DNA of 31,542 nucleotides from a virus (lineage: Duplodnaviria; Heunggongvirae; Uroviricota; Caudoviricetes): positions 1 to 31,542 of IMG/VR virus record IMGVR_UViG_2711768060_000013. The stretch is one strand, 5' to 3'. This document shows positions 17,977-25,847 of the stretch, in pieces. The notes beneath the pieces are model-generated. The model searched no databases, was not told the origin of the DNA, and saw only the letters and a list, made by a program, of their open reading frames with translations. Position numbers and translations under genes: made by a program. The number at the start of each line of letters is the position of its first letter. Positions within the stretch are counted from its first letter, which is position 1.

Positions 17977-19540
17977 GACCGGTGTCCCCCAGCGCACGCG
18001 CCTTAAAGCACACCTCCGCCAGTTGCAGGGCAAAGTCGTCCGCGTTCAGCGTTTCCTGAAGCTCAGGCAGGCGTTTCAGAAAGTCATCAAAACTGTCGCA
18101 TTCCTGCGCCAGTGTCAGCACCGGGTTCGTGAACGCTTCGCCGGTTTTCTGCCAGTCACGCAGGGCATCATCCACCATCAGCGCCAGTTCGTCGGAGTGT
18201 TCACGGTTCAGGGCGACGCGCTCGCGGTTCATCGCCATATCACCTGACATTCCGGCAGAAACCGGATGCAGAACATCAGCCCCTTCGTCCGGTTCAGCCA
18301 GGCCGAACCGGTCCCGCAGCTCCGATTCCTGAACACGCATCCCCCGGTCAATCAGCGGCACCAGGGCATCTGTCAGCGCCTTCAGATCTTCTGCTTCACT
18401 GATACGCAGAACAACACGGGGGTAGTGCGCCTGTGGCCCGTAGTTGGCCTCGATATAGGGACGCACCAGATATTCATTCAGCGTGTTAGCCAGTTGCCGC
18501 GCGTCCCAGCGCACAATGTCCATACGCACCTGATTGTGCACGTCCGCCTGTGAACGCGAACTGCCGTTATCCGTGGTCATGGTCTGCCCCAGCACAGCCT
18601 TACTGATTTGCGCATCGCACCATTCCGCCATTTCACGGAACAGTGCGCCGCCGTTATTCCGGCTGGCGGTTTCCTGCATCTCCAGTTGCATGGACTGCGG
18701 AATGGCACACCCGGCATCCGAGGCAATGGAGGCAATTGCATCAATCAGCACGCGGATTTGCTCCTCCGTGGCATTGGGGCCGTATTTCCCCACCGTGACC
18801 GGAATACCGAACTTCTCCGCGAACGCCCACCAGTCACGCACGGTATAGGATTTCAGCATGTACATCACCGCCACCAGACGGGCCAGACCGTTACGCAGCG
18901 GCAGACCGGATTTCAGACGCGGCTGGTGAACAATGAATTTTCCCGGTGTCAGCGGTACGCCATCCACCGGTTCATCGTCAGTCAGCAGGCGGAACTGGCG
19001 CAGCGTGGGTTTTTCGGCTTTCAGAAAACGGGGATCAACCCACTCATAATCACGGGGCATCCAGTGGTTGTTGCGGGTGTTCCACAGAATTTCACAGACC
19101 GCCACCCCTTTCCCCAGCCCGTCGAGCAGATCAAACAACAGCTCGGGGATTTGCGGGGCTTCCATCAGTGCACGGATGGCGTCCGCCAGTTGCACGTCAG
19201 CATCGTCATCACTGGCGGCCACCACCACCGGTTCGATACCCGCCACCGTCAGCTTGCGGGTGCGCAGCACCGAGGCGTAATGCAAATCGCGCTCTTCCAT
19301 CTCTTCAGCAAGGATAAAAAAATCACGCGTGATGCCGTCGGCGGCATTGCGCAGAATGCCTGCCAGCCTGCCGGGGTTCAGCCCGGAGGCGACGCTGATA
19401 CCCGGCGAGGCCGAACGCACACCGGCATGACGCGGACGGGCCTGTGCTTCGTTGAGCGCCTCTTTTTTCAGCGTGTCTTCCTCACCGGTTGCCGGGTTCA
19501 GCAGACGGCGAACGGCCCCGGCCAGTTGTTTCAGGTTCAC
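17969..19540 (-). CDS. H: portal protein (Mu H-like, gp29, DUF935)
   Basis: ORF track, 523 aa, ATGA overlap with the terminase gene, recognised family. Confidence 0.9.
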   Translation of the reverse strand: MNLKQLAGAVRRLLNPATGEEDTLKKEALNEAQARPRHAGVRSASPGISVASGLNPGRLAGILRNAADGITRDFFILAEEMEERDLHYASVLRTRKLTVAGIEPVVVAASDDDADVQLADAIRALMEAPQIPELLFDLLDGLGKGVAVCEILWNTRNNHWMPRDYEWVDPRFLKAEKPTLRQFRLLTDDEPVDGVPLTPGKFIVHQPRLKSGLPLRNGLARLVAVMYMLKSYTVRDWWAFAEKFGIPVTVGKYGPNATEEQIRVLIDAIASIASDAGCAIPQSMQLEMQETASRNNGGALFREMAEWCDAQISKAVLGQTMTTDNGSSRSQADVHNQVRMDIVRWDARQLANTLNEYLVRPYIEANYGPQAHYPRVVLRISEAEDLKALTDALVPLIDRGMRVQESELRDRFGLAEPDEGADVLHPVSAGMSGDMAMNRERVALNREHSDELALMVDDALRDWQKTGEAFTNPVLTLAQECDSFDDFLKRLPELQETLNADDFALQLAEVCFKARALGDTGHA

Positions 19541-21120
19541 AGTAAACCTCCCTCATTTTTCAGGCCGCGCGTCAGCTTCATCTGGCGGCGCGCGTTGCGT
19601 TCTTCCGGTTTCGCCGGGCGGTTCAGGCGGTGCAGCTCGTAACGGCGGCAGTCTTCTTTACTGGCAAGAAACGCCAGGAAGATGGCATAGGCGCTGTCAC
19701 CGTGACGTTTATGACCATCACTGCCAGTCTTCTCCCTGTCATCAATTCCGGGAGTACCGCGCAGGATGACGATCTGCCCGAGGTCACTAATGACATCTTC
19801 ATGTTTAGGCAGAATCAGCTCGTCATCCTCAAAGGCTGATTTAAATCGGGGCATATTCTCCCGATAGTGCCCGACAGAAGGCATAACCACTTCGACCTCA
19901 TCGCCATAACGTTCAGCAGCCTGTTCAGCCAGGTAGTTGCCGTTCCCACGTCCATCAAGTTTGATACCATCTCTGCGGGGAAGGCGATCACAGATAAAGA
20001 AAAGCGCCTGCTCCTGTTGCTTGTACGGTACGTTTGCAAGTTCGACTAAAAAGGGGACGGTGCGTGTGGTGTCATCGTTAACCGTCATCGGTGCAAAGAC
20101 GGTGAGGTGACCAGATCGGGCAAAGTCTTCTCCCAGACAGTGGCGAAGGTTTTGCGGCAACTTATTCAGTTCGGGGAGTACAACACGCTCAAGCCAGTCC
20201 CGCATATCCAGTGCCCTGATGCCTTCAGGTGTTGCATTGAATTCTGTCGAGCCGGTGAAGCGCAGGACAGGCCCGGAACCTCGCGCCGCTCGTTCACAAA
20301 TGGAACGAGCCAGATAAGTACCTCCGCCGTTCTTCGGCTCGCAGTAGTATTCCTCGCGGGCATCTTCTTCAGTCGCGGTGTCATTCAGCAGATTGTTCAG
20401 CCATTCAGCCTCGGCTGCTGACGACCATGTCTGTCGGGTGACCTGGCAGATTCGCTTATAAAGCCCCTCAGTGATAGCCAGTTCTATATCAATGCGGTGT
20501 ACCGAGTAACGGCGTTTTCCGGCGCGACTTTCAGTTATGAGCGTATTGAAGAGGTTCTCAATGCCGTTATGGGTGGAGATAATCCTGACTTTACTGCCCC
20601 ACATGGTCAGCGCCAGTGCCGCCTTCAGTAACGCGGCAAGGTCGACCTGAAAGGCCGCCTCATCAATAATGACGTTACCCTGCATACCACGCAGGTTGGA
20701 CGGATTAGAGGACAGCGCCTTAATTTTAAAACCGCTGGCAAAGTTAATGACATAAACCAGTATGTCCTTGTCTTCATCTTTGAGAACTTCTTCCCCAATA
20801 TCGGATGCTGCCCAGTCGTAAGCTTTGGCCCACATGGCGCAGGCATCAATAAACTCGCGCGCCATGTCTTTGGTCGTGCCGACATAGAAAGTATCGCAAC
20901 CGCCTGCCTCTCTCGACATTGAGCCATTCAGGGCAGCATCAGCAGCTTCTGCCCAGGTTAATCCAGTACGACGCGACTTTTCGCCGATTTTTATTTGGGC
21001 TGTATCAGCAATCCAGCGGCGCTGGTAGGGCAAAAGTACCTGGTCCTGATCAAACTCACCAGCAAGAATTGCCGCAGCGGATGCGCTGTTCAGTACACTG
21101 TTTTTAACCATATCAACCAT
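19537..21120 (-). CDS. terminase large subunit (Mu gp28-like)
   Basis: ORF track, 527 aa, TAATG overlap with the upstream gene, recognised family. Confidence 0.9.
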   Translation of the reverse strand: MVDMVKNSVLNSASAAAILAGEFDQDQVLLPYQRRWIADTAQIKIGEKSRRTGLTWAEAADAALNGSMSREAGGCDTFYVGTTKDMAREFIDACAMWAKAYDWAASDIGEEVLKDEDKDILVYVINFASGFKIKALSSNPSNLRGMQGNVIIDEAAFQVDLAALLKAALALTMWGSKVRIISTHNGIENLFNTLITESRAGKRRYSVHRIDIELAITEGLYKRICQVTRQTWSSAAEAEWLNNLLNDTATEEDAREEYYCEPKNGGGTYLARSICERAARGSGPVLRFTGSTEFNATPEGIRALDMRDWLERVVLPELNKLPQNLRHCLGEDFARSGHLTVFAPMTVNDDTTRTVPFLVELANVPYKQQEQALFFICDRLPRRDGIKLDGRGNGNYLAEQAAERYGDEVEVVMPSVGHYRENMPRFKSAFEDDELILPKHEDVISDLGQIVILRGTPGIDDREKTGSDGHKRHGDSAYAIFLAFLASKEDCRRYELHRLNRPAKPEERNARRQMKLTRGLKNEGGLL

Positions 21121-21698
21121 TACGCTATACCCAAGATCTGGCGGCGGATATCAGCTGCGGTTTCCGCGGAAAGCCCCGCCTGTTTGGTAATTTTCTCCAG
21201 TTGTGCAGCCGCCTCTTCAGCAAAGGCCTGGCGAATCTCTTTCTCCCGCTTATGGCTGGTCATGGCTGCCGCTTCCAGACGCTGGGCAACCAGCGCCAGT
21301 TGCCCCAGCGCCTTCGGTGCAACGGGCTTGTCGTCTTCTGCCATCGACATGGACGTTTCAAAAGCCAGCGTTTTTACAAACTCCATCAGCAGCTTGCCAA
21401 CGTCTGACGTCGGCGCGGAACCCAGCTTTGCCGCCCAGACTTCGGCCATTTCGCGGGAGGCACGGATTTTTGCCCCGACTTTTTCCATGCGGATGGCATA
21501 GCGGTTTAAGCCCGTCCGGCTTAACTGCATCTCTTCCGGCAGGTTGTGTTCGTCAATCAGGGCGTTGATGGCTTCGCGGATTTCTTCCTGCGTGTGCCGC
21601 TTTTCCCGCAGCATCTGATGCAACTGCTCCCGGATGCTGTCAGGGAGTAAATCCACTTTGGAAAGACGGCCACGGGTGGGGCGTTGTTCATTTTCCAT
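21120..21698 (-). CDS. Mu gp27-like protein (DUF3486), putative terminase small subunit
   Basis: ORF track; start moved to ATG at 21696-21698 with AGGAGGG 6 nt upstream. Confidence 0.7.
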   Translation of the reverse strand: MENEQRPTRGRLSKVDLLPDSIREQLHQMLREKRHTQEEIREAINALIDEHNLPEEMQLSRTGLNRYAIRMEKVGAKIRASREMAEVWAAKLGSAPTSDVGKLLMEFVKTLAFETSMSMAEDDKPVAPKALGQLALVAQRLEAAAMTSHKREKEIRQAFAEEAAAQLEKITKQAGLSAETAADIRRQILGIA

Positions 21699-21835
21699 GT
21701 GTGCCCTCCTGTTGCTCACTACGCTGTAAACTTTCGTATGCAGATTTCAGTGCGCCGCTCTGGATTTCCCGCCATGTCAGGTTGTGCGCCAGACGGCGGA
21801 GTTCATCACGGGACGCTTTACTTATCGGATTCTTT

Positions 21836-22135
21836 TTACGGTTCACGACGGCCCCCGTCTTCAGTTCCCGGTGTTTTCAGACCGGCGTATATTTCTTCGC
21901 GAACGGAGCGGATATCCTTACCCAGCAGCTTCCACAGCCGCGCACATGCCGGTGATGAACGCAGGGCACGTTTCATGGGGGTATCCGGTGCATCCGGGTT
22001 CCAGGGCTTTCCGGTCTGTTGTTCGTATGCACGGACAATGGCGTTTTGCTCAATATCTGCCAGCACAAGGCAGTACGCCAGTTGCCGCACGACGGCCCGT
22101 TCTCCGCGACTTAACGGCTTCAGTTTTCGGGCCAT
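21836..22135 (-). CDS. hypothetical protein (99 aa)
   Basis: ORF track; GAGGGA Shine-Dalgarno; start 2 nt after the upstream stop. Confidence 0.5.
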   Translation of the reverse strand: MARKLKPLSRGERAVVRQLAYCLVLADIEQNAIVRAYEQQTGKPWNPDAPDTPMKRALRSSPACARLWKLLGKDIRSVREEIYAGLKTPGTEDGGRREP

Positions 22136-22137
22136 GC

Positions 22138-22431
22138 TCAGTCCCTCGCACGGGGTTTTTTAACGCCCGGAACGCTGGACAGGCCGTTTGCCACATCCTC
22201 ACCGCTGCCGGTGATTTCAGCCACGTAACAGCCGCCCACATCAGACAGACGAACCAGCCCCTGCTCGCGAAGCCATGCAAGCTGGGTGCGCACCACATCA
22301 CGGGATACCTTATGACCGTAGGCCTGAAGGCAGGTCTGCAACACGGATTCATTCGCGCTGTCGCCACAGTCCAGCAGGGAACGCAGCAACACCAGACGAC
22401 GGTCTTCAGTGAGGATCTCTTTCATCGCCAT
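22138..22431 (-). CDS. hypothetical protein (97 aa), possible winged-helix DNA-binding protein
   Basis: ORF track; TAATG coupling to the upstream gene. Confidence 0.5.
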   Translation of the reverse strand: MAMKEILTEDRRLVLLRSLLDCGDSANESVLQTCLQAYGHKVSRDVVRTQLAWLREQGLVRLSDVGGCYVAEITGSGEDVANGLSSVPGVKKPRARD

Positions 22432-22736
22432 TAATTTTTTTCCTTTAACTCATTCTCTAATAACAAATCGCTGATGCGGGATACCTGGCGGATGGATGGC
22501 CCCAGTTCCTTGATTTCTCCCCTCAGGTTGCTGATATCCAGTTGCAGGCGGTGGAACTCATCACGATCAGGTAGCTGATGCACCTGGCTTTCCATCACCG
22601 ATACACGGGAACGCAACAAATCAAACTCTTCGCGTTTGACGTAGGTCTTCGCCAGAATCAACTGAAGCAGGTTTATTCCTGTCATCAGCAATGCCCACAG
22701 AATGGGCCAGTTGGCTCTGATCATTTCCCAGGACAC
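22431..22736 (-). CDS. membrane-anchored coiled-coil protein (N-terminal TM helix, DUF2730-like)
   Basis: ORF track, 101 aa, hydrophobic N-terminus followed by a heptad-like region. Confidence 0.55.
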   Translation of the reverse strand: MSWEMIRANWPILWALLMTGINLLQLILAKTYVKREEFDLLRSRVSVMESQVHQLPDRDEFHRLQLDISNLRGEIKELGPSIRQVSRISDLLLENELKEKN

Positions 22737-22948
22737 GATTTCCTCCTGTGTTCCCGTATCTGCTGACAGTCAATACAGGTCACCACATCCGGCAGCGCCG
22801 CAAGGCGCTGTGCCGGAATAACGTTCCCGCAGTCATTGCAGAAGCCCCGGCTGTGGGGCGCTTCTTTTGTCCGCGTCTGCCAGGCTTTAACGACGCTCTG
22901 ACGTTCGTTCAGAACCACTTCACTGATGCGGTCGATTTCGTCGGTCAT
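22721..22948 (-). CDS. TraR/DksA-family C4 zinc-finger protein
   Basis: ORF track, 75 aa, CxxC-(N17)-CxxC motif (CNDCG...CIDCQ). Confidence 0.7.
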   Translation of the reverse strand: MTDEIDRISEVVLNERQSVVKAWQTRTKEAPHSRGFCNDCGNVIPAQRLAALPDVVTCIDCQQIREHRRKSCPGK

Positions 22949-23553
22949 TTCGGCCCCGCAGACATTTTGTGACGGCTTGATTTGCTGTAACGGGCAAAAC
23001 CGTCAAGGGTTCTTACGCCGAGATAGCCCAGCGCCGGGGTAAGCAACATCAGCGTGATATCCCAGTCCGGTGACGGCATATGCAGCGAGATACCTTTGGC
23101 ACCGGCAATGGCTCCGGCAATCTGACCGCAGGAGAGCAACAGCACATAGGCCAGACTGCTGTAACAGGAAAGGCGGGCCAGCAGCGGGCGCGTCTGGCGC
23201 ACATAGCTGTCCGTGGCGTTGTCACCATTGCGGATGGTTTCCTGCTGTTCGTGGTGTGCGGCCTGCTGGTCAGCCAGCACCAGCTTCTGCCGTTCCACCT
23301 CCAGCTGTTGCAGCTGAATTTTCAGAGTTTCCAGCTGCATCAGTTGCTCCGGTGACAACATCACCAGCTTTTGTTCCAGAATGCGTTGCTGTTCAGCCAC
23401 CGGCAGGCTTTCCCGGACGCTTTCCACCATACCGGCCACCGAGTCAGCGGCGGCAGATGTGCTACCACCAAACCAGCGCCCGACGGAACGAATCAGCCCC
23501 GGCCCGGCTTTCAGCAGAACAGAGGCGATGCCTGAAAGGGTTAACGGATCCAC
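22945..23553 (-). CDS. putative holin-like membrane protein (N-terminal coiled coil, C-terminal TM segments)
   Basis: ORF track frame; start moved to GTG at 23551-23553 with a perfect GGAGG 7 nt upstream, which removes the 162-nt overlap with the upstream gene. Confidence 0.5.
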   Translation of the reverse strand: MDPLTLSGIASVLLKAGPGLIRSVGRWFGGSTSAAADSVAGMVESVRESLPVAEQQRILEQKLVMLSPEQLMQLETLKIQLQQLEVERQKLVLADQQAAHHEQQETIRNGDNATDSYVRQTRPLLARLSCYSSLAYVLLLSCGQIAGAIAGAKGISLHMPSPDWDITLMLLTPALGYLGVRTLDGFARYSKSSRHKMSAGPK

Positions 23554-23966
23554 GGGAAACCTCCATACAGATAACGCTGAAAACAGAGCAGACCGCCGCA
23601 ACTGCCACCACACAGCCAGAACACCGGATGCACCGGTGACATCATCATCAGCGTGCTGAAGACGCAGCAGAAATATCCCAGCGCCCAGACCACCCATGAC
23701 CACACGATGATGTGGCGACCAAAAGCCCGGTAACGGACCTCAGGCAGCAGGCGAAATGGCACATTCCCGAGGCTTGCGCTGTATGAAAACAACACCACCC
23801 CGGCAAAGGACAACAACATCAACACGAACGATCGCCAGCCACATAACATGCTGATGATGAACATGCAGAGTGTCAGTCCGGCCAGTGGCCATGGCGTTCT
23901 CATCAGTCGGGAACAAATCAGCCAGTCACACAGTTTTAAAATTTTGTTCATTACCTTTTTCCACAT
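23541..23966 (-). CDS. multi-pass membrane protein, Cys-rich; possible lysis-associated protein
   Basis: ORF track frame; start moved to ATG at 23964-23966 (MWKKVMNKIL...); hydrophobic segments throughout. Confidence 0.45.
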   Translation of the reverse strand: MWKKVMNKILKLCDWLICSRLMRTPWPLAGLTLCMFIISMLCGWRSFVLMLLSFAGVVLFSYSASLGNVPFRLLPEVRYRAFGRHIIVWSWVVWALGYFCCVFSTLMMMSPVHPVFWLCGGSCGGLLCFQRYLYGGFPWIR

Positions 23967-24177
23967 TGAATTTTTCCCTGTACTTCTGGCACTGCCAGAA
24001 AATGTCCCGTGTATCCACGGAGTTCCAGCCACGCATGTAGTAGCTGGCGTGTGTGCCGTCATGGCCGGTGTAGTCCACCGGTTTCGGGGGCGGACCTCCG
24101 GCCATGCGGTGTAAAACCTCCTGGCGCAGGCGGTCACGCCGCCCGGCTTTCAGTGAGGCGTCCCAGCCTTTGCCCAT
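23926..24177 (-). CDS. hypothetical protein (83 aa) immediately after the endolysin
   Basis: ORF track; ATG directly downstream of a G8 tract; in the -1 frame relative to the endolysin. Confidence 0.45.
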   Translation of the reverse strand: MGKGWDASLKAGRRDRLRQEVLHRMAGGPPPKPVDYTGHDGTHASYYMRGWNSVDTRDIFWQCQKYREKFNVEKGNEQNFKTV

Positions 24178-24767
24178 ATCCCCCCCCGCGTGGTGGACGG
24201 CGCGTTGTCGATAATTTCCAGACAGGCGTCGGTCAGTTTTTCCATGCGGTTAAACCAGCCGTTCAGGTATTTACCCTGGGCGGGTTTTGACTTGATGATG
24301 TCGGCATAAAAGCGGGAACGACGGACAATGCAGCGGGTCAGCAACCAGTCCGGGGTGGACAGGCTCACGGCCTTACGGGTACACGGGCCGATGATGCCGT
24401 CAGCATCCACATCAGCGGCTTCCTGCAAAATTCTGATGGCTTTTTTAACGCCATGCTGAACCGCCGCATCGAACACAAACATCGCCACGCCATCAGGCCA
24501 CTGGTCACATCCGGCAGGCAGCCAGTAATCACGCAGGTAAATCTGTGCGGCCTGTTCGCGGGTTAAATCTTTGATGCGGGTATCCGGTTTACCGTCACCG
24601 TTGACATCGGTTTTGCCGTCAATCACACCGTCGCGGCGGTCAGAAATGCCGTATTTGGTTTCGCCGCCACGGTCAGTGGGGTCATTGACATAGACGCCTT
24701 CGATATCAGGACGCAGAATGAAATTCAGCGCATGTTCAAAGGCCGGGGAGAATTTTTGATTTTCCAT
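24150..24767 (-). CDS. endolysin, GH108-type N-terminal domain plus PG_binding_3-like domain; no SAR/TM segment
   Basis: ORF track, 205 aa; EGVYVNDPTDRGGETKYGI motif typical of GH108; AGGTG 6 nt upstream of the ATG. Confidence 0.8.
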   Translation of the reverse strand: MENQKFSPAFEHALNFILRPDIEGVYVNDPTDRGGETKYGISDRRDGVIDGKTDVNGDGKPDTRIKDLTREQAAQIYLRDYWLPAGCDQWPDGVAMFVFDAAVQHGVKKAIRILQEAADVDADGIIGPCTRKAVSLSTPDWLLTRCIVRRSRFYADIIKSKPAQGKYLNGWFNRMEKLTDACLEIIDNAPSTTRGGIWAKAGTPH

Positions 24768-24822
24768 AAAAGCACCTGTGAAGCAGATTTAAACGTGGTC
24801 TGCTTCATGGTGCCGGAGGCAT

Positions 24823-24848
24823 AAAAAAAGCCGGATTTACCGGCTTCA
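24823..24848 (-). terminator. intrinsic terminator 8 nt downstream of the mor stop (AAGCCGG-TAAAT-CCGGCTT then T7 on the minus strand); same element as 17047-17072
   Basis: hairpin and U-run read directly from sequence. Confidence 0.6.
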
Positions 24849-24852
24849 TTGA

Positions 24853-25302
24853 TTAAAGGCGTCGTGGCGGACGACGAACGGGGTGAGGCAGGTTCGGGGA
24901 GGGGTAAAACAAATCCGGCTGGTATTTATTACGCTCCAGACGTCGCATCCGTTTGATGGCCTTGTAGACGGTTTTATACGTCACTCCGTAACGCTGAACC
25001 AGTTCAGGAATATTATGGCCGTTAAAATCACGCCAGATACGCATATCCCGGACAAGATTCTCCAGAATATTCCCCCTCGGAACATAAACCTGCATCCCGC
25101 CGATATGGCGACAAATCGCCACAACCAGCTCAAGGGAATGAACAGGGTCTGCGCCAATCCGGGCCAGCTCTTTACGCAGCAGTGCGTTCAGTTCAGAAAG
25201 TAACGCCGGATAAGCGGTGTTTTCCTGGTAATCATGAAGATATTCCAGAACGCTGTCGTCCCGGAGGTCTTCGAATAAATCCTGCTCTTTCATCTGTTTC
25301 AT
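24853..25302 (-). CDS. mor: Mor/C-family transcriptional activator (Mor-like, 149 aa)
   Basis: ORF track; sequence recognised as Mor-like (DLF.DL.DD..L..L......PALL.EL..LLR.EL...G.DP.HSLE.VVAIC.H.GG.QVY.PRG...L.RD.RIW.DFNG.N..EL...YGVT..TVYKAI.RMRRL); follows gemA. Confidence 0.85.
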   Translation of the reverse strand: MKQMKEQDLFEDLRDDSVLEYLHDYQENTAYPALLSELNALLRKELARIGADPVHSLELVVAICRHIGGMQVYVPRGNILENLVRDMRIWRDFNGHNIPELVQRYGVTYKTVYKAIKRMRRLERNKYQPDLFYPSPNLPHPVRRPPRRL

Positions 25303-25847
25303 ACAGCAATTCTCCCGCTGTTTCGTGCGCGGGCATACGCACTGGTCAGTGCATCATAGCCGCGCAGTTCCCGCCCGGATGGGCTTACAGGTAAAGGCAC
25401 ACCATGTCGGGCAAAGGCTTCACGGATGCAGCGCATGTGCCACTGTTTGAGCGTTTCGAGCACAACCTGCAACGATTCCCCGTGACACCAGGCCAGTGTG
25501 GAAACACCCTGACCGCCATTACGTCTGGCCGTCAGGCGCTCAACGTATTTGTCCAGCGCGGCGTCGCTGATATCGGAAACGAAACCATCAAGGAACATCT
25601 GCTGCCAGATTTTGTAAATCTTCTCGCGTGGTGTGACATGCCCCTTAAAGCGACGGCGGGGATGTTTTTTCTGCTTCTTAAAACCGCGCTCTTTCATGGC
25701 ATCGAGCACACGTTCCAGTTGTGCAACGGACAGCTCGCGGCAACTGGTCTTGCCCGTGCACTGCACCAGAAAGGCGCGGTAAGTGTCATCGTCGAGTTGT
25801 AGATCACGACGAGCGACATGAATTAATTTAATAAGCGATGCGCGCAT
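25299..25847 (-). CDS. gemA: GemA-like protein (Mu gp16 family, DUF1018)
   Basis: ORF track; start moved to ATG at 25845-25847 (MRASLIKLIHVARR...) with GGAGA 8 nt upstream; recognised family. Confidence 0.8.
   Translation of the reverse strand: MRASLIKLIHVARRDLQLDDDTYRAFLVQCTGKTSCRELSVAQLERVLDAMKERGFKKQKKHPRRRFKGHVTPREKIYKIWQQMFLDGFVSDISDAALDKYVERLTARRNGGQGVSTLAWCHGESLQVVLETLKQWHMRCIREAFARHGVPLPVSPSGRELRGYDALTSAYARARNSGRIAV

Follow-up and report, generated by a model that had tools for sequence, protein, structure and literature searches.

Herein we analysed a putative lysis cassette at positions 22431-24767 of a 31,542-nucleotide (nt) tailed-phage sequence (IMG/VR record IMGVR_UViG_2711768060_000013; the whole stretch is hereafter called the window), which is a Mu-like (transposable) E. 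coli prophage. With a probability of roughly 60%, we read the tight minus-strand operon found there as part of a lysis-packaging operon that would follow the canonical route of a holin and a soluble endolysin, and not the Mu route of a signal-anchor-release (SAR) endolysin and its releasin. This reading is carried by a GH108 muramidase predicted to be soluble and by orf202, which we assign with moderate confidence as a putative holin in a divergent branch of the PF11351/TeaA superfamily. The original prediction, made from the sequence, had described five proteins in this cassette, and each was found on the minus strand where it had been placed: an endolysin with a peptidoglycan-binding domain and without a SAR segment, a Cys-rich protein with several transmembrane domains (TMDs), a protein with a coiled coil and TMDs that starts at a GTG behind a GGAGG, a TraR-like zinc finger, and a protein with a TMD and a coiled coil, which proved to belong to DUF2730. 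A sixth gene, orf83 (23926-24177), had been overlooked.

In the mechanism that we propose, Mor would switch the operon on and the muramidase would accumulate in the cytoplasm, folded and harmless. The orf202 protein would accumulate in the inner membrane, anchored by two TMDs, while its basic tail and first ~120 residues stay cytoplasmic; at a set time it would trigger, its holes then passing the 23-kDa enzyme to the murein. The orf136 protein, the gp18 homolog in the cytoplasm and the DUF2730 protein through its cytoplasmic domain would most likely tune the timing of the holin and not act on the endolysin, while the outer membrane would be ruptured without a classical spanin.

A predicted soluble muramidase and a candidate holin

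The endolysin gene (lys, 24150-24767, minus strand; 205 amino acids (aa)) encodes a PF05838 (Glyco_hydro_108) domain at aa 22-106 (86.1 bits against a gathering score (GA) of 21.2, E 2.4e-24), followed by PF09374 (PG_binding_3) at aa 110-175 (59.9 bits, GA 24.6, E 2.7e-16). The protein falls in the endolysin family PHROG 315 (9.8e-55) and matches the PDB entries 2IKB (E 6e-21), 2IS5 and 7DNP, with E values ranging from 6e-21 to 3e-14; E23 of its EGxY motif (DIEGVYVNDPTDRGGETKYGI) aligns with the HEGGY motif of 2IKB (HEGGYANHPKDPGGETNWGI) and is presumably the catalytic residue. Neither a TMD nor a SAR segment was found in a hydropathy analysis, in which the highest 19-residue Kyte-Doolittle mean was 0.91 and the first 40 residues held no peak. 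The SAR segment of Mu gp22 (residues 7-24) stood out in the same analysis with a score of 1.46 (17-residue window). The enzyme is hence predicted to be soluble and to lie outside the SAR class. Its sole NCBIfam match, to the ‘holin-associated N-acetylmuramidase’ NF040573, is treated as a lead only, since it reaches 76 bits and so falls far below the cut-off of 240. Inside the GH108 domain lies an Asp/Gly-rich insertion (DGKTDVNGDGKPD; aa 50-62, positions 24582-24620) that resembles a DxDxDG calcium-binding loop; the Klebsiella enzyme shares the insertion, whereas 2IKB and the Vibrio and Shewanella homologs lack it.

The candidate holin gene, orf202 (22945-23553, minus strand; 202 aa), starts at a GTG located 6 nt after the GGAGG, a start confirmed by the ATG that the Klebsiella homolog has at the same position. 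The family to which it belongs shares an N-terminal helix with the motif GPxLIRxxGxLFGG, a long coiled-coil helix, two hydrophobic helices and a basic tail, together with a near-invariant QxTIRxGDxAxDxYVRxTRP, which takes the form ETIRNGDNATDSYVRQTRP in orf202; the N-terminal motif of orf202 itself reads GPxLIRxxGxWFGG. The AlphaFold (AF2) model of the protein is all helical, with a pLDDT (confidence score) of 73, and a Foldseek search with it returned no PDB match with E < 1. The C-terminal tail is net positive in 106 of the 107 full-length family members and the N-terminal motif holds a conserved Arg; the predicted topology fits an N-in/C-in protein with two TMDs and a large cytoplasmic N-terminal domain. 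An alternative in which the N-terminal helix is a SAR-like TMD acted on by the DUF2730 protein was down-weighted, given the conserved Arg and a median uncharged run of 16 residues. Within PHROGs the protein belongs to family 1544 (‘unknown function’), and homologs with at least 70% identity are common in Klebsiella, Citrobacter, Raoultella, Yersinia, Pectobacterium and Edwardsiella, none of them named. An exhaustive HMMER search yielded 153 representative clusters for the family, and a second homolog search with the orf202 profile returned the same close Enterobacterales matches and added nothing.

Evidence for a holin function comes from profile comparisons and from gene neighbourhood. PF11351 (GTA_holin_3TM) was matched by 40 of 150 orf202 family representatives (E <= 1e-3; best 4.7e-10), and no other family recurs. 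The family profile aligned with ORF137 of phage ICP1 over 142 columns (hhalign probability 95.5%, E 1.5e-8), and this ORF137 is TeaA, according to the supplementary table and the cloning primers, which match its ends. TeaA makes the proton-motive force collapse and is triggered by dinitrophenol (DNP) (Hays & Seed 2020, PMC7182436). It has the same architecture as orf202, in addition to the homology at profile level, and in both ICP1 and the window a multi-TMD gene stands immediately upstream of the holin gene (the antiholin gene arrA before teaA; orf136, which overlaps the start of orf202, in an arrangement that mirrors arrA-teaA). PF11351 is also the holin family of the gene transfer agent RcGTA, in which the endolysin-holin pair rcc00555/rcc00556 is needed for lysis and release; the endolysin rcc00555 is, we assume, a GH108-type muramidase, as the name of NF040573 also indicates. 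The window, as a transposable E. coli prophage, differs in setting from both ICP1 and RcGTA.

Among Mu-like phages, Pseudoalteromonas phage HS6 has a bona fide PF11351 protein (43.5 bits, GA 24.8) in the orf202 slot, within the order GH108 - gp18-like - orf99-like - PF11351 holin - DksA zinc finger - DUF2730; HS6 thus carries the typical PF11351 holin, whereas the window carries the orf202 branch. In at least seven phage lineages, homologs of orf202 themselves are encoded directly downstream of an endolysin gene or with one gene in between, and the endolysins concerned are of four enzyme types. The neighbouring enzyme is a GH108 protein in the Mu-like phages Vibrio 1.028.O (and its type), Shewanella MuM16-2 and Klebsiella Kp4866-3 as well as in the non-Mu phage Vibrio LP.1, a DUF5675 enzyme in Vibrio ZX4290, an amidase in Vibrio D65 and an LD-endopeptidase in Janthinobacterium phage Donnerlittchen. 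In the Vibrio and Shewanella cassettes the orf202 homolog is the only multi-TMD protein beside the soluble endolysin.

The teaA cluster of ICP1 (HQ641347, 541-2097; our locus L011) contains the same four architectures as the window in a different order, namely ORF139 (TMD and coiled coil), ArrA (multi-TMD), TeaA and ORF136 (small and Cys-rich). The idea of a homologous four-gene module shared with ICP1 was rejected, as homology was not detected for three of the four proteins; the alignment with ICP1 ORF136 rests on Cys residues only.

Several points weigh against the holin-endolysin interpretation. The score of orf202 itself against PF11351 (20.5-20.7 bits, E 6-7e-4) is below the Pfam gathering score of 24.8, so that the protein counts as a divergent relative and not as a member of the Pfam family. 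TeaA has no direct Pfam match either, which means that the link from orf202 to holins rests on profile methods and synteny, and the orf202 family profile aligns with the HS6 holin over the RxxRP motif only (hhalign probability 50%). In Donnerlittchen, a class-III-type holin is annotated upstream of the endolysin and the orf202 homolog takes the usual spanin position, a layout in which the family may have another role in lysis. The comparison with ICP1 gave no homology between ORF139 and the DUF2730 protein (hhalign 1%), nor was any detected between orf136 and ArrA. Furthermore, the TMDs of the cassette proteins were called by hydropathy alone, the transcription of the operon from a Pm-like site is deduced from sequence similarity, and the roles given to the gp18 homolog, orf136 and the DUF2730 protein are guesses from position and topology.

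Alternative roles for the membrane proteins and the search for spanins

The gene orf136 (23541-23951, minus strand; 136 aa) occupies the position of Mu gp19 and encodes a protein of PHROG 12596 with 9 Cys and four hydrophobic peaks, taken as four predicted TMDs. Klebsiella phage Kp4866-3 encodes a 30%-identical protein at the corresponding place, and the resemblance to Mu gp19 is weak (25% identity; hhalign probability 19%, E 1e-3). No phage match was obtained for it by tblastn, and a word-index search recovered four clusters, a number that understates the family given the 30%-identical Klebsiella homolog. Position and topology make it a candidate antiholin or accessory membrane protein. Were orf136 instead the true holin, orf202 would be its antiholin or regulator, or would have no part in membrane permeabilisation. 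This arrangement would suit a small multi-TMD protein encoded between the endolysin and orf202, with a homolog in the corresponding slot of Kp4866-3, and it recalls the proposal of Samanta et al., as cited by Chamblee et al. (2022, PMC9239132), that Mu gp19 and gp20 form a holin-antiholin pair. In the latter study, however, Mu gp19, gp20 and gp25 showed no holin properties: gp19 alone or with gp20 was not lethal and gave no triggering by DNP, and inactivation of gene 19 caused no lysis defect. Besides, counterparts of orf136 are missing from the Vibrio, Shewanella, ZX4290 and HS6 cassettes, all of which have soluble endolysins, and the protein has a narrow distribution and no match to any holin family. 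We therefore regard orf136 as an unlikely holin, and retain orf202 as the candidate.

Spanins were searched for as well. Six-frame scans of the window for signal peptides and lipoboxes returned only antisense or out-of-frame open reading frames (ORFs) without ribosome sites, and hence no credible spanin lipoprotein in the cassette or elsewhere in the window; two complete phage genomes, those of Klebsiella Kp4866-3 and Vibrio 1.028.O, and all homologous cassettes scanned likewise gave no lipobox spanin. The same lipobox scan recovered Mu gp23.1. Approximately 15% of phages are reported as spanin-less in one preprint (bioRxiv 10.1101/515445), and the present clade appears, from these genome scans, to be among them. 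Two candidates nested in orf202 were rejected. An in-frame internal GTG at 23202 would give an 85-aa product (22945-23202) with a lipobox-like LLLSC and a TMD at the C-terminus, resembling a unimolecular spanin in outline, and was set aside as a chance match, having no ribosome site and a periplasmic part of ~23 residues, which is too short. A Pro/Cys-rich embedded ORF of 59 aa (23049-23228), considered as an outer-membrane spanin subunit (o-spanin), was dropped for want of a ribosome site and of conservation in Klebsiella. In Vibrio phage D65, a 58-aa, extremely basic Lys/Arg-rich protein is encoded directly after the orf202 homolog (L008, 2851-3027); it could be a disruptin-like outer-membrane factor in a spanin-less cassette.

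In a second alternative, orf202 is an outer-membrane or envelope-disruption factor, that is, an inner-membrane-anchored coiled-coil substitute for a spanin, and the holin is orf136 or the DUF2730 protein. The classical spanin position of the Donnerlittchen homolog, after a holin and an endolysin, would agree with such a role, as would the long coiled-coil helix in the orf202 model and the fact that all orf202-carrying cassettes scanned are without a lipobox spanin; a weak BLAST match also relates orf202 to the Mu inner-membrane spanin gp23 (E 0.04, in a database of 12 proteins). We nevertheless consider this role very unlikely. The TMDs of orf202 are C-terminal, and its basic tail and N-terminal domain are predicted to be cytoplasmic, so that the coiled coil would not be periplasmic; no o-spanin partner is present, and orf202 is homologous to TeaA/PF11351, for which holin-type behaviour was shown.

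The DUF2730 gene (22431-22736, minus strand; 101 aa) starts at a GTG after AGGAGG, and its product is a homolog of the Mu releasin gp25 (26% identity), with which it shares both PHROG 736 and the Pfam family PF10805. The protein matches the latter at aa 4-98 (105.6 bits, E 1.7e-30) and is 39-40% identical to the DUF2730 proteins of the Vibrio and Shewanella phages. Its TMD (aa 10-30) is followed by Lys and Arg, and an N-out/C-in topology with a cytoplasmic coiled coil is expected. The gene is the fifth after lys, and DUF2730 genes were found in that same place after the endolysin in all of 34 Mu-like phages that carry one (PMC9239132). While the protein is clearly a member of the family, a function as releasin is not supported, because its partner endolysin has no SAR domain. 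In spite of this, the protein might be a functional gate for the endolysin, either as an export route or by releasing a GH108 enzyme that is exported by an unrecognised signal. The homology to the Mu releasin and the conserved place as fifth gene are compatible with a gate, and a hydrophilic channel is one of the proposed models of releasin action (PMC9239132). In opposition to this, the endolysin has no hydrophobic or signal segment, Mu gp25 alone has no holin property, and the dependence of gp22 on its releasin maps to Lys residues beside the SAR domain (PMC9239132), a domain that does not exist here. We judge a gate of this kind to be highly improbable, and a predicted soluble endolysin that would leave through holes made by orf202 stays the preferred interpretation.

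Relation to Mu and transcription of the operon

The order of the corresponding genes and sites in Mu (AF083977) is Mor, Pm, gp18, gp19 (4 TMDs), gp20, C, Plys, gp22, gp23/gp23.1, gp24, gp25, gp26, gp27 and gp28. Mu uses the SAR endolysin gp22, the spanins gp23/gp23.1 and the releasin gp25, and has no holin (PMC9239132), and the original prediction had described the Mu system correctly. Its verdict that the cassette is unlike canonical Mu held for the enzyme and its export and failed for five of the neighbours, which are Mu counterparts in Mu order. Mu and the window are alike in Mor, the Pm hairpin, gp18, a 4-TMD protein in the gp19 slot, gp24, gp25/DUF2730, gp26, gp27 and gp28. They differ in that the window has the GH108 gene, encoding a soluble enzyme and not a SAR lysozyme, between the Pm-like element and gp18, so that its endolysin is the first gene after a Mor-type promoter, whereas that of Mu follows the C-dependent Plys. 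In the place where Mu has gp20, C, Plys, gp22 and gp23/23.1 stands orf202; the window has a PF11351/TeaA-type holin candidate, which Mu does not, and is without the spanins, gp20 and the C activator that Mu has.

The gene that had been overlooked, orf83 (minus strand; 83 aa, soluble), encodes a homolog of Mu gp18 (E18), with 69% identity over 72 aa (E 5e-38). A homolog follows the endolysin directly in the Klebsiella, Vibrio, Shewanella and Pseudoalteromonas Mu-like phages, and the gp18 family is confined to Mu-like phages, where it always comes next after the endolysin if that enzyme is of the GH108 type. AlphaFold gave a pLDDT of 58 for the protein alone, and phmmer found nothing for it among the PDB sequences. 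The 284-position profile of PHROG 2121 matches the window at 23926-24177, 23541-24137 and 22945-23703, with gp18-like proteins at profile positions 3-85 and orf202-like proteins at 89-281 (orf136 was matched too), which suggests either a natural fusion of gp18 and the holin in some phage or a mis-clustered family.

The TraR-like zinc-finger gene (22721-22948, minus strand; 75 aa) is the counterpart of Mu gp24. Its product matches PF01258 (E 1.2e-11) and TIGR02419 (62.8 bits, above the cut-off of 59.7), and its four Cys align with those of Mu gp24 in the same CxxC-x17-CxxC spacing and are invariant in an alignment that includes the Vibrio and Shewanella proteins; the protein is probably a transcription factor and not a lysis effector. 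The gp26-like winged-helix protein of the VpaChn25_0724 family (22138-22431, minus strand; 97 aa) is 61% identical to Mu gp26 (NF050184, 122 bits), and its gene closes the block common to Mu, ahead of the terminase genes. These are TerS (21120-21719, minus strand; 199 aa), the counterpart of Mu gp27 with 50% identity, and TerL (19537-21120, minus strand; 527 aa).

Upstream of the cassette, mor (24853-25302, minus strand; 149 aa) encodes a Mor-family transcription activator (PF08765, E 8.8e-30) that is 63% identical to Mu Mor and 32% identical to Mu C. It is the only Mor/C-family gene in the window, where tblastn with Mu Mor and Mu C hit this locus alone and no C gene is present. Between mor and lys, a scan for terminator-like structures detected a 21-nt hairpin and T-run on the minus strand (24827-24847; GAAGCCGGTAAATCCGGCTTTTTTT). 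It can be aligned with Mu Pm (AAGCCGGTTAATCCGGCTTTTTTT), which carries the label ‘middle promoter, activated by Mor’ in AF083977. The alignment has 18 of 19 core bases identical, the mismatch being in the loop, and the same T-run, and we read the element as the counterpart of the Mu early terminator and Mor-dependent middle promoter Pm. An identical copy of the 21 nt lies at 17052-17072 (minus strand), upstream of the protease/scaffold gene, where Mu has its C-dependent late promoter P_I; 0.01 matches are expected by chance. This second copy would mark the 3' end of the lysis-packaging operon. The sequences suggest that the lysis-packaging operon and the head operon are each driven by a Mor-type promoter. 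With a single Mor/C gene, nearer to Mor, this would be a two-tier cascade with no separate late activator C.

The original prediction had left the holin, antiholin and spanin roles unassigned. This agrees with the databases, none of which names a holin or a spanin here, and is now qualified for orf202, which falls in the PF11351/TeaA superfamily. It had also raised two grounds for doubt, a SAR-type signal in the endolysin and hits of the other proteins to non-lysis families; hydropathy gave no such signal, and the membrane proteins had no match to a non-lysis family. A different lysis strategy, which it had considered, is not what we find: a canonical holin with a soluble endolysin is the favoured reading, and the same string of genes occurs in plaque-forming Vibrio, Shewanella and Pseudoalteromonas Mu-like phages. 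Under the mechanism proposed above, Mu would be a derived relative in which gp18, gp19, gp24, gp25 and gp26 persist and the GH108 enzyme and the holin have given way to a SAR lysozyme, spanins and the extra activator C.

A bolder version, possible but doubtful, holds that gp18 - (4-TMD) - PF11351/TeaA-type holin - gp24 zinc finger - DUF2730 is the ancestral lysis-control module of transposable phages. From the cytoplasmic face, gp18 and the releasin-family protein would target the holin, serving as its trigger or antiholin, and not the endolysin; rupture would be spanin-free, and the holin-less, releasin-dependent SAR system of Mu would be a secondary rewiring of the module. If true, it would account for the retention in Mu of gp18 and gp19, which are otherwise functionless there. 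The holin assignment itself suggests that genes 18 and 19, the unexplained middle genes of Mu, were left over from a lysis module.

Prophage setting, related phages and wider meaning

All genes of the window are on the minus strand and comprise transposase A/B, Gam, gp16/GemA and Mor, then terminase, portal, head and tail genes. The region 21800-25400 had no near match among deposited phages (megablast against the phage collection). Chromosomal prophages in 53 of 5426 complete E. coli genomes (~1%) match it at 93-97% identity, and PGAP annotates the same ORFs in them, mostly as ‘hypothetical protein’. Synonymous codon differences equalled or exceeded non-synonymous ones in 14 of 16 gene-by-relative comparisons with two relatives, the exceptions being lys and traR against KFu019. 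These prophages with the same ORFs and the mostly synonymous differences argue that the cassette genes are real. Each gene shares 1-28 nt with the next, which is what translational coupling within an operon would predict, and we interpret the string accordingly.

At 24150-24190, the endolysin of the E. coli relatives stops at a TGA one base before the ATG of orf83. In the window this stop is lost by a T to G change within a run of 8 G, as a result of which the ORF runs on for 30 nt and overlaps orf83 by 28 nt; the tail before the lost stop is 8 nt shorter than in the relatives and differs in sequence, a change that lies beyond the PG_binding_3 domain. A decaying, non-inducible prophage in which some cassette ORFs have ceased to function could be read from this lost stop and altered tail and from the prophage-like origin of the window, with no plaque-forming isolate, but is exceedingly improbable, as the cassette ORFs are all intact and keep the overlaps typical of translational coupling, substitutions are mostly synonymous, the altered tail spares PG_binding_3, and the same layout occurs in the related Klebsiella phage genome and in plaque-forming Vibrio and Shewanella phages.

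The cassette order of the window is shared by the Vibrio 1.028.O group, Shewanella vB_SspM_MuM16-2 and Pseudoalteromonas HS6, the common order being Mor - GH108/PG_binding_3 - gp18-like - (x) - PF11351-superfamily - TraR/DksA - DUF2730 - gp26-like - TerS. Protein identities between these marine Mu-like phages and the window are just 30-45%, and the 4-TMD protein is missing in the marine phages. GH108 and DUF2730 have been listed together before: in nine Vibrio myophages, DUF2730 proteins occur with GH108 + PG_binding_3 enzymes (PMC9239132, Table S1). No holin was named for those phages, and the role of DUF2730 beside cytoplasmic endolysins was called ‘an important next step’ (Chamblee et al. 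2022, PMC9239132). What is new here is the holin assignment, the placing of Mu gp18, gp19 and gp24 in a conserved block, the pair of Mor-type promoters and the spanin-less state, which extend current models and overturn none. In the window, an E. coli-native cassette combines a credible TeaA/GTA-type holin with a soluble GH108 enzyme and a releasin homolog. As the cassette is native to E. coli, standard E. coli genetics can be brought to bear, in a convenient system, on the part that releasin-family proteins play beside an enzyme with no need of release. The assignment of orf202 would also give a function to a widespread family of hypothetical proteins (PHROG 1544; Klebsiella, Citrobacter, Yersinia, Vibrio and others), and one more clade of phages with Gram-negative hosts appears to be spanin-less.

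Two small ORFs of 99 aa (orf99, 21836-22135) and 52 aa lie on the minus strand between the gp26-like gene and TerS (21688-22135 together). The orf99 protein has no TMD and no family match, and a clear homolog of it is encoded in HS6 between the gp18-like gene and the holin (L013, 3054-3335); orf99 may thus be part of the same conserved block. Relatives of the window carry extra genes between mor and the endolysin gene, none of which is present in the window. In Klebsiella phage Kp4866-3 this is an AT-rich insert encoding a 110-aa membrane protein (L010, 1378-1710), and in the Vibrio and Shewanella phages the gene encodes a secreted 150-aa protein with a signal peptide (L004, 1139-1591; L005, 1122-1571).

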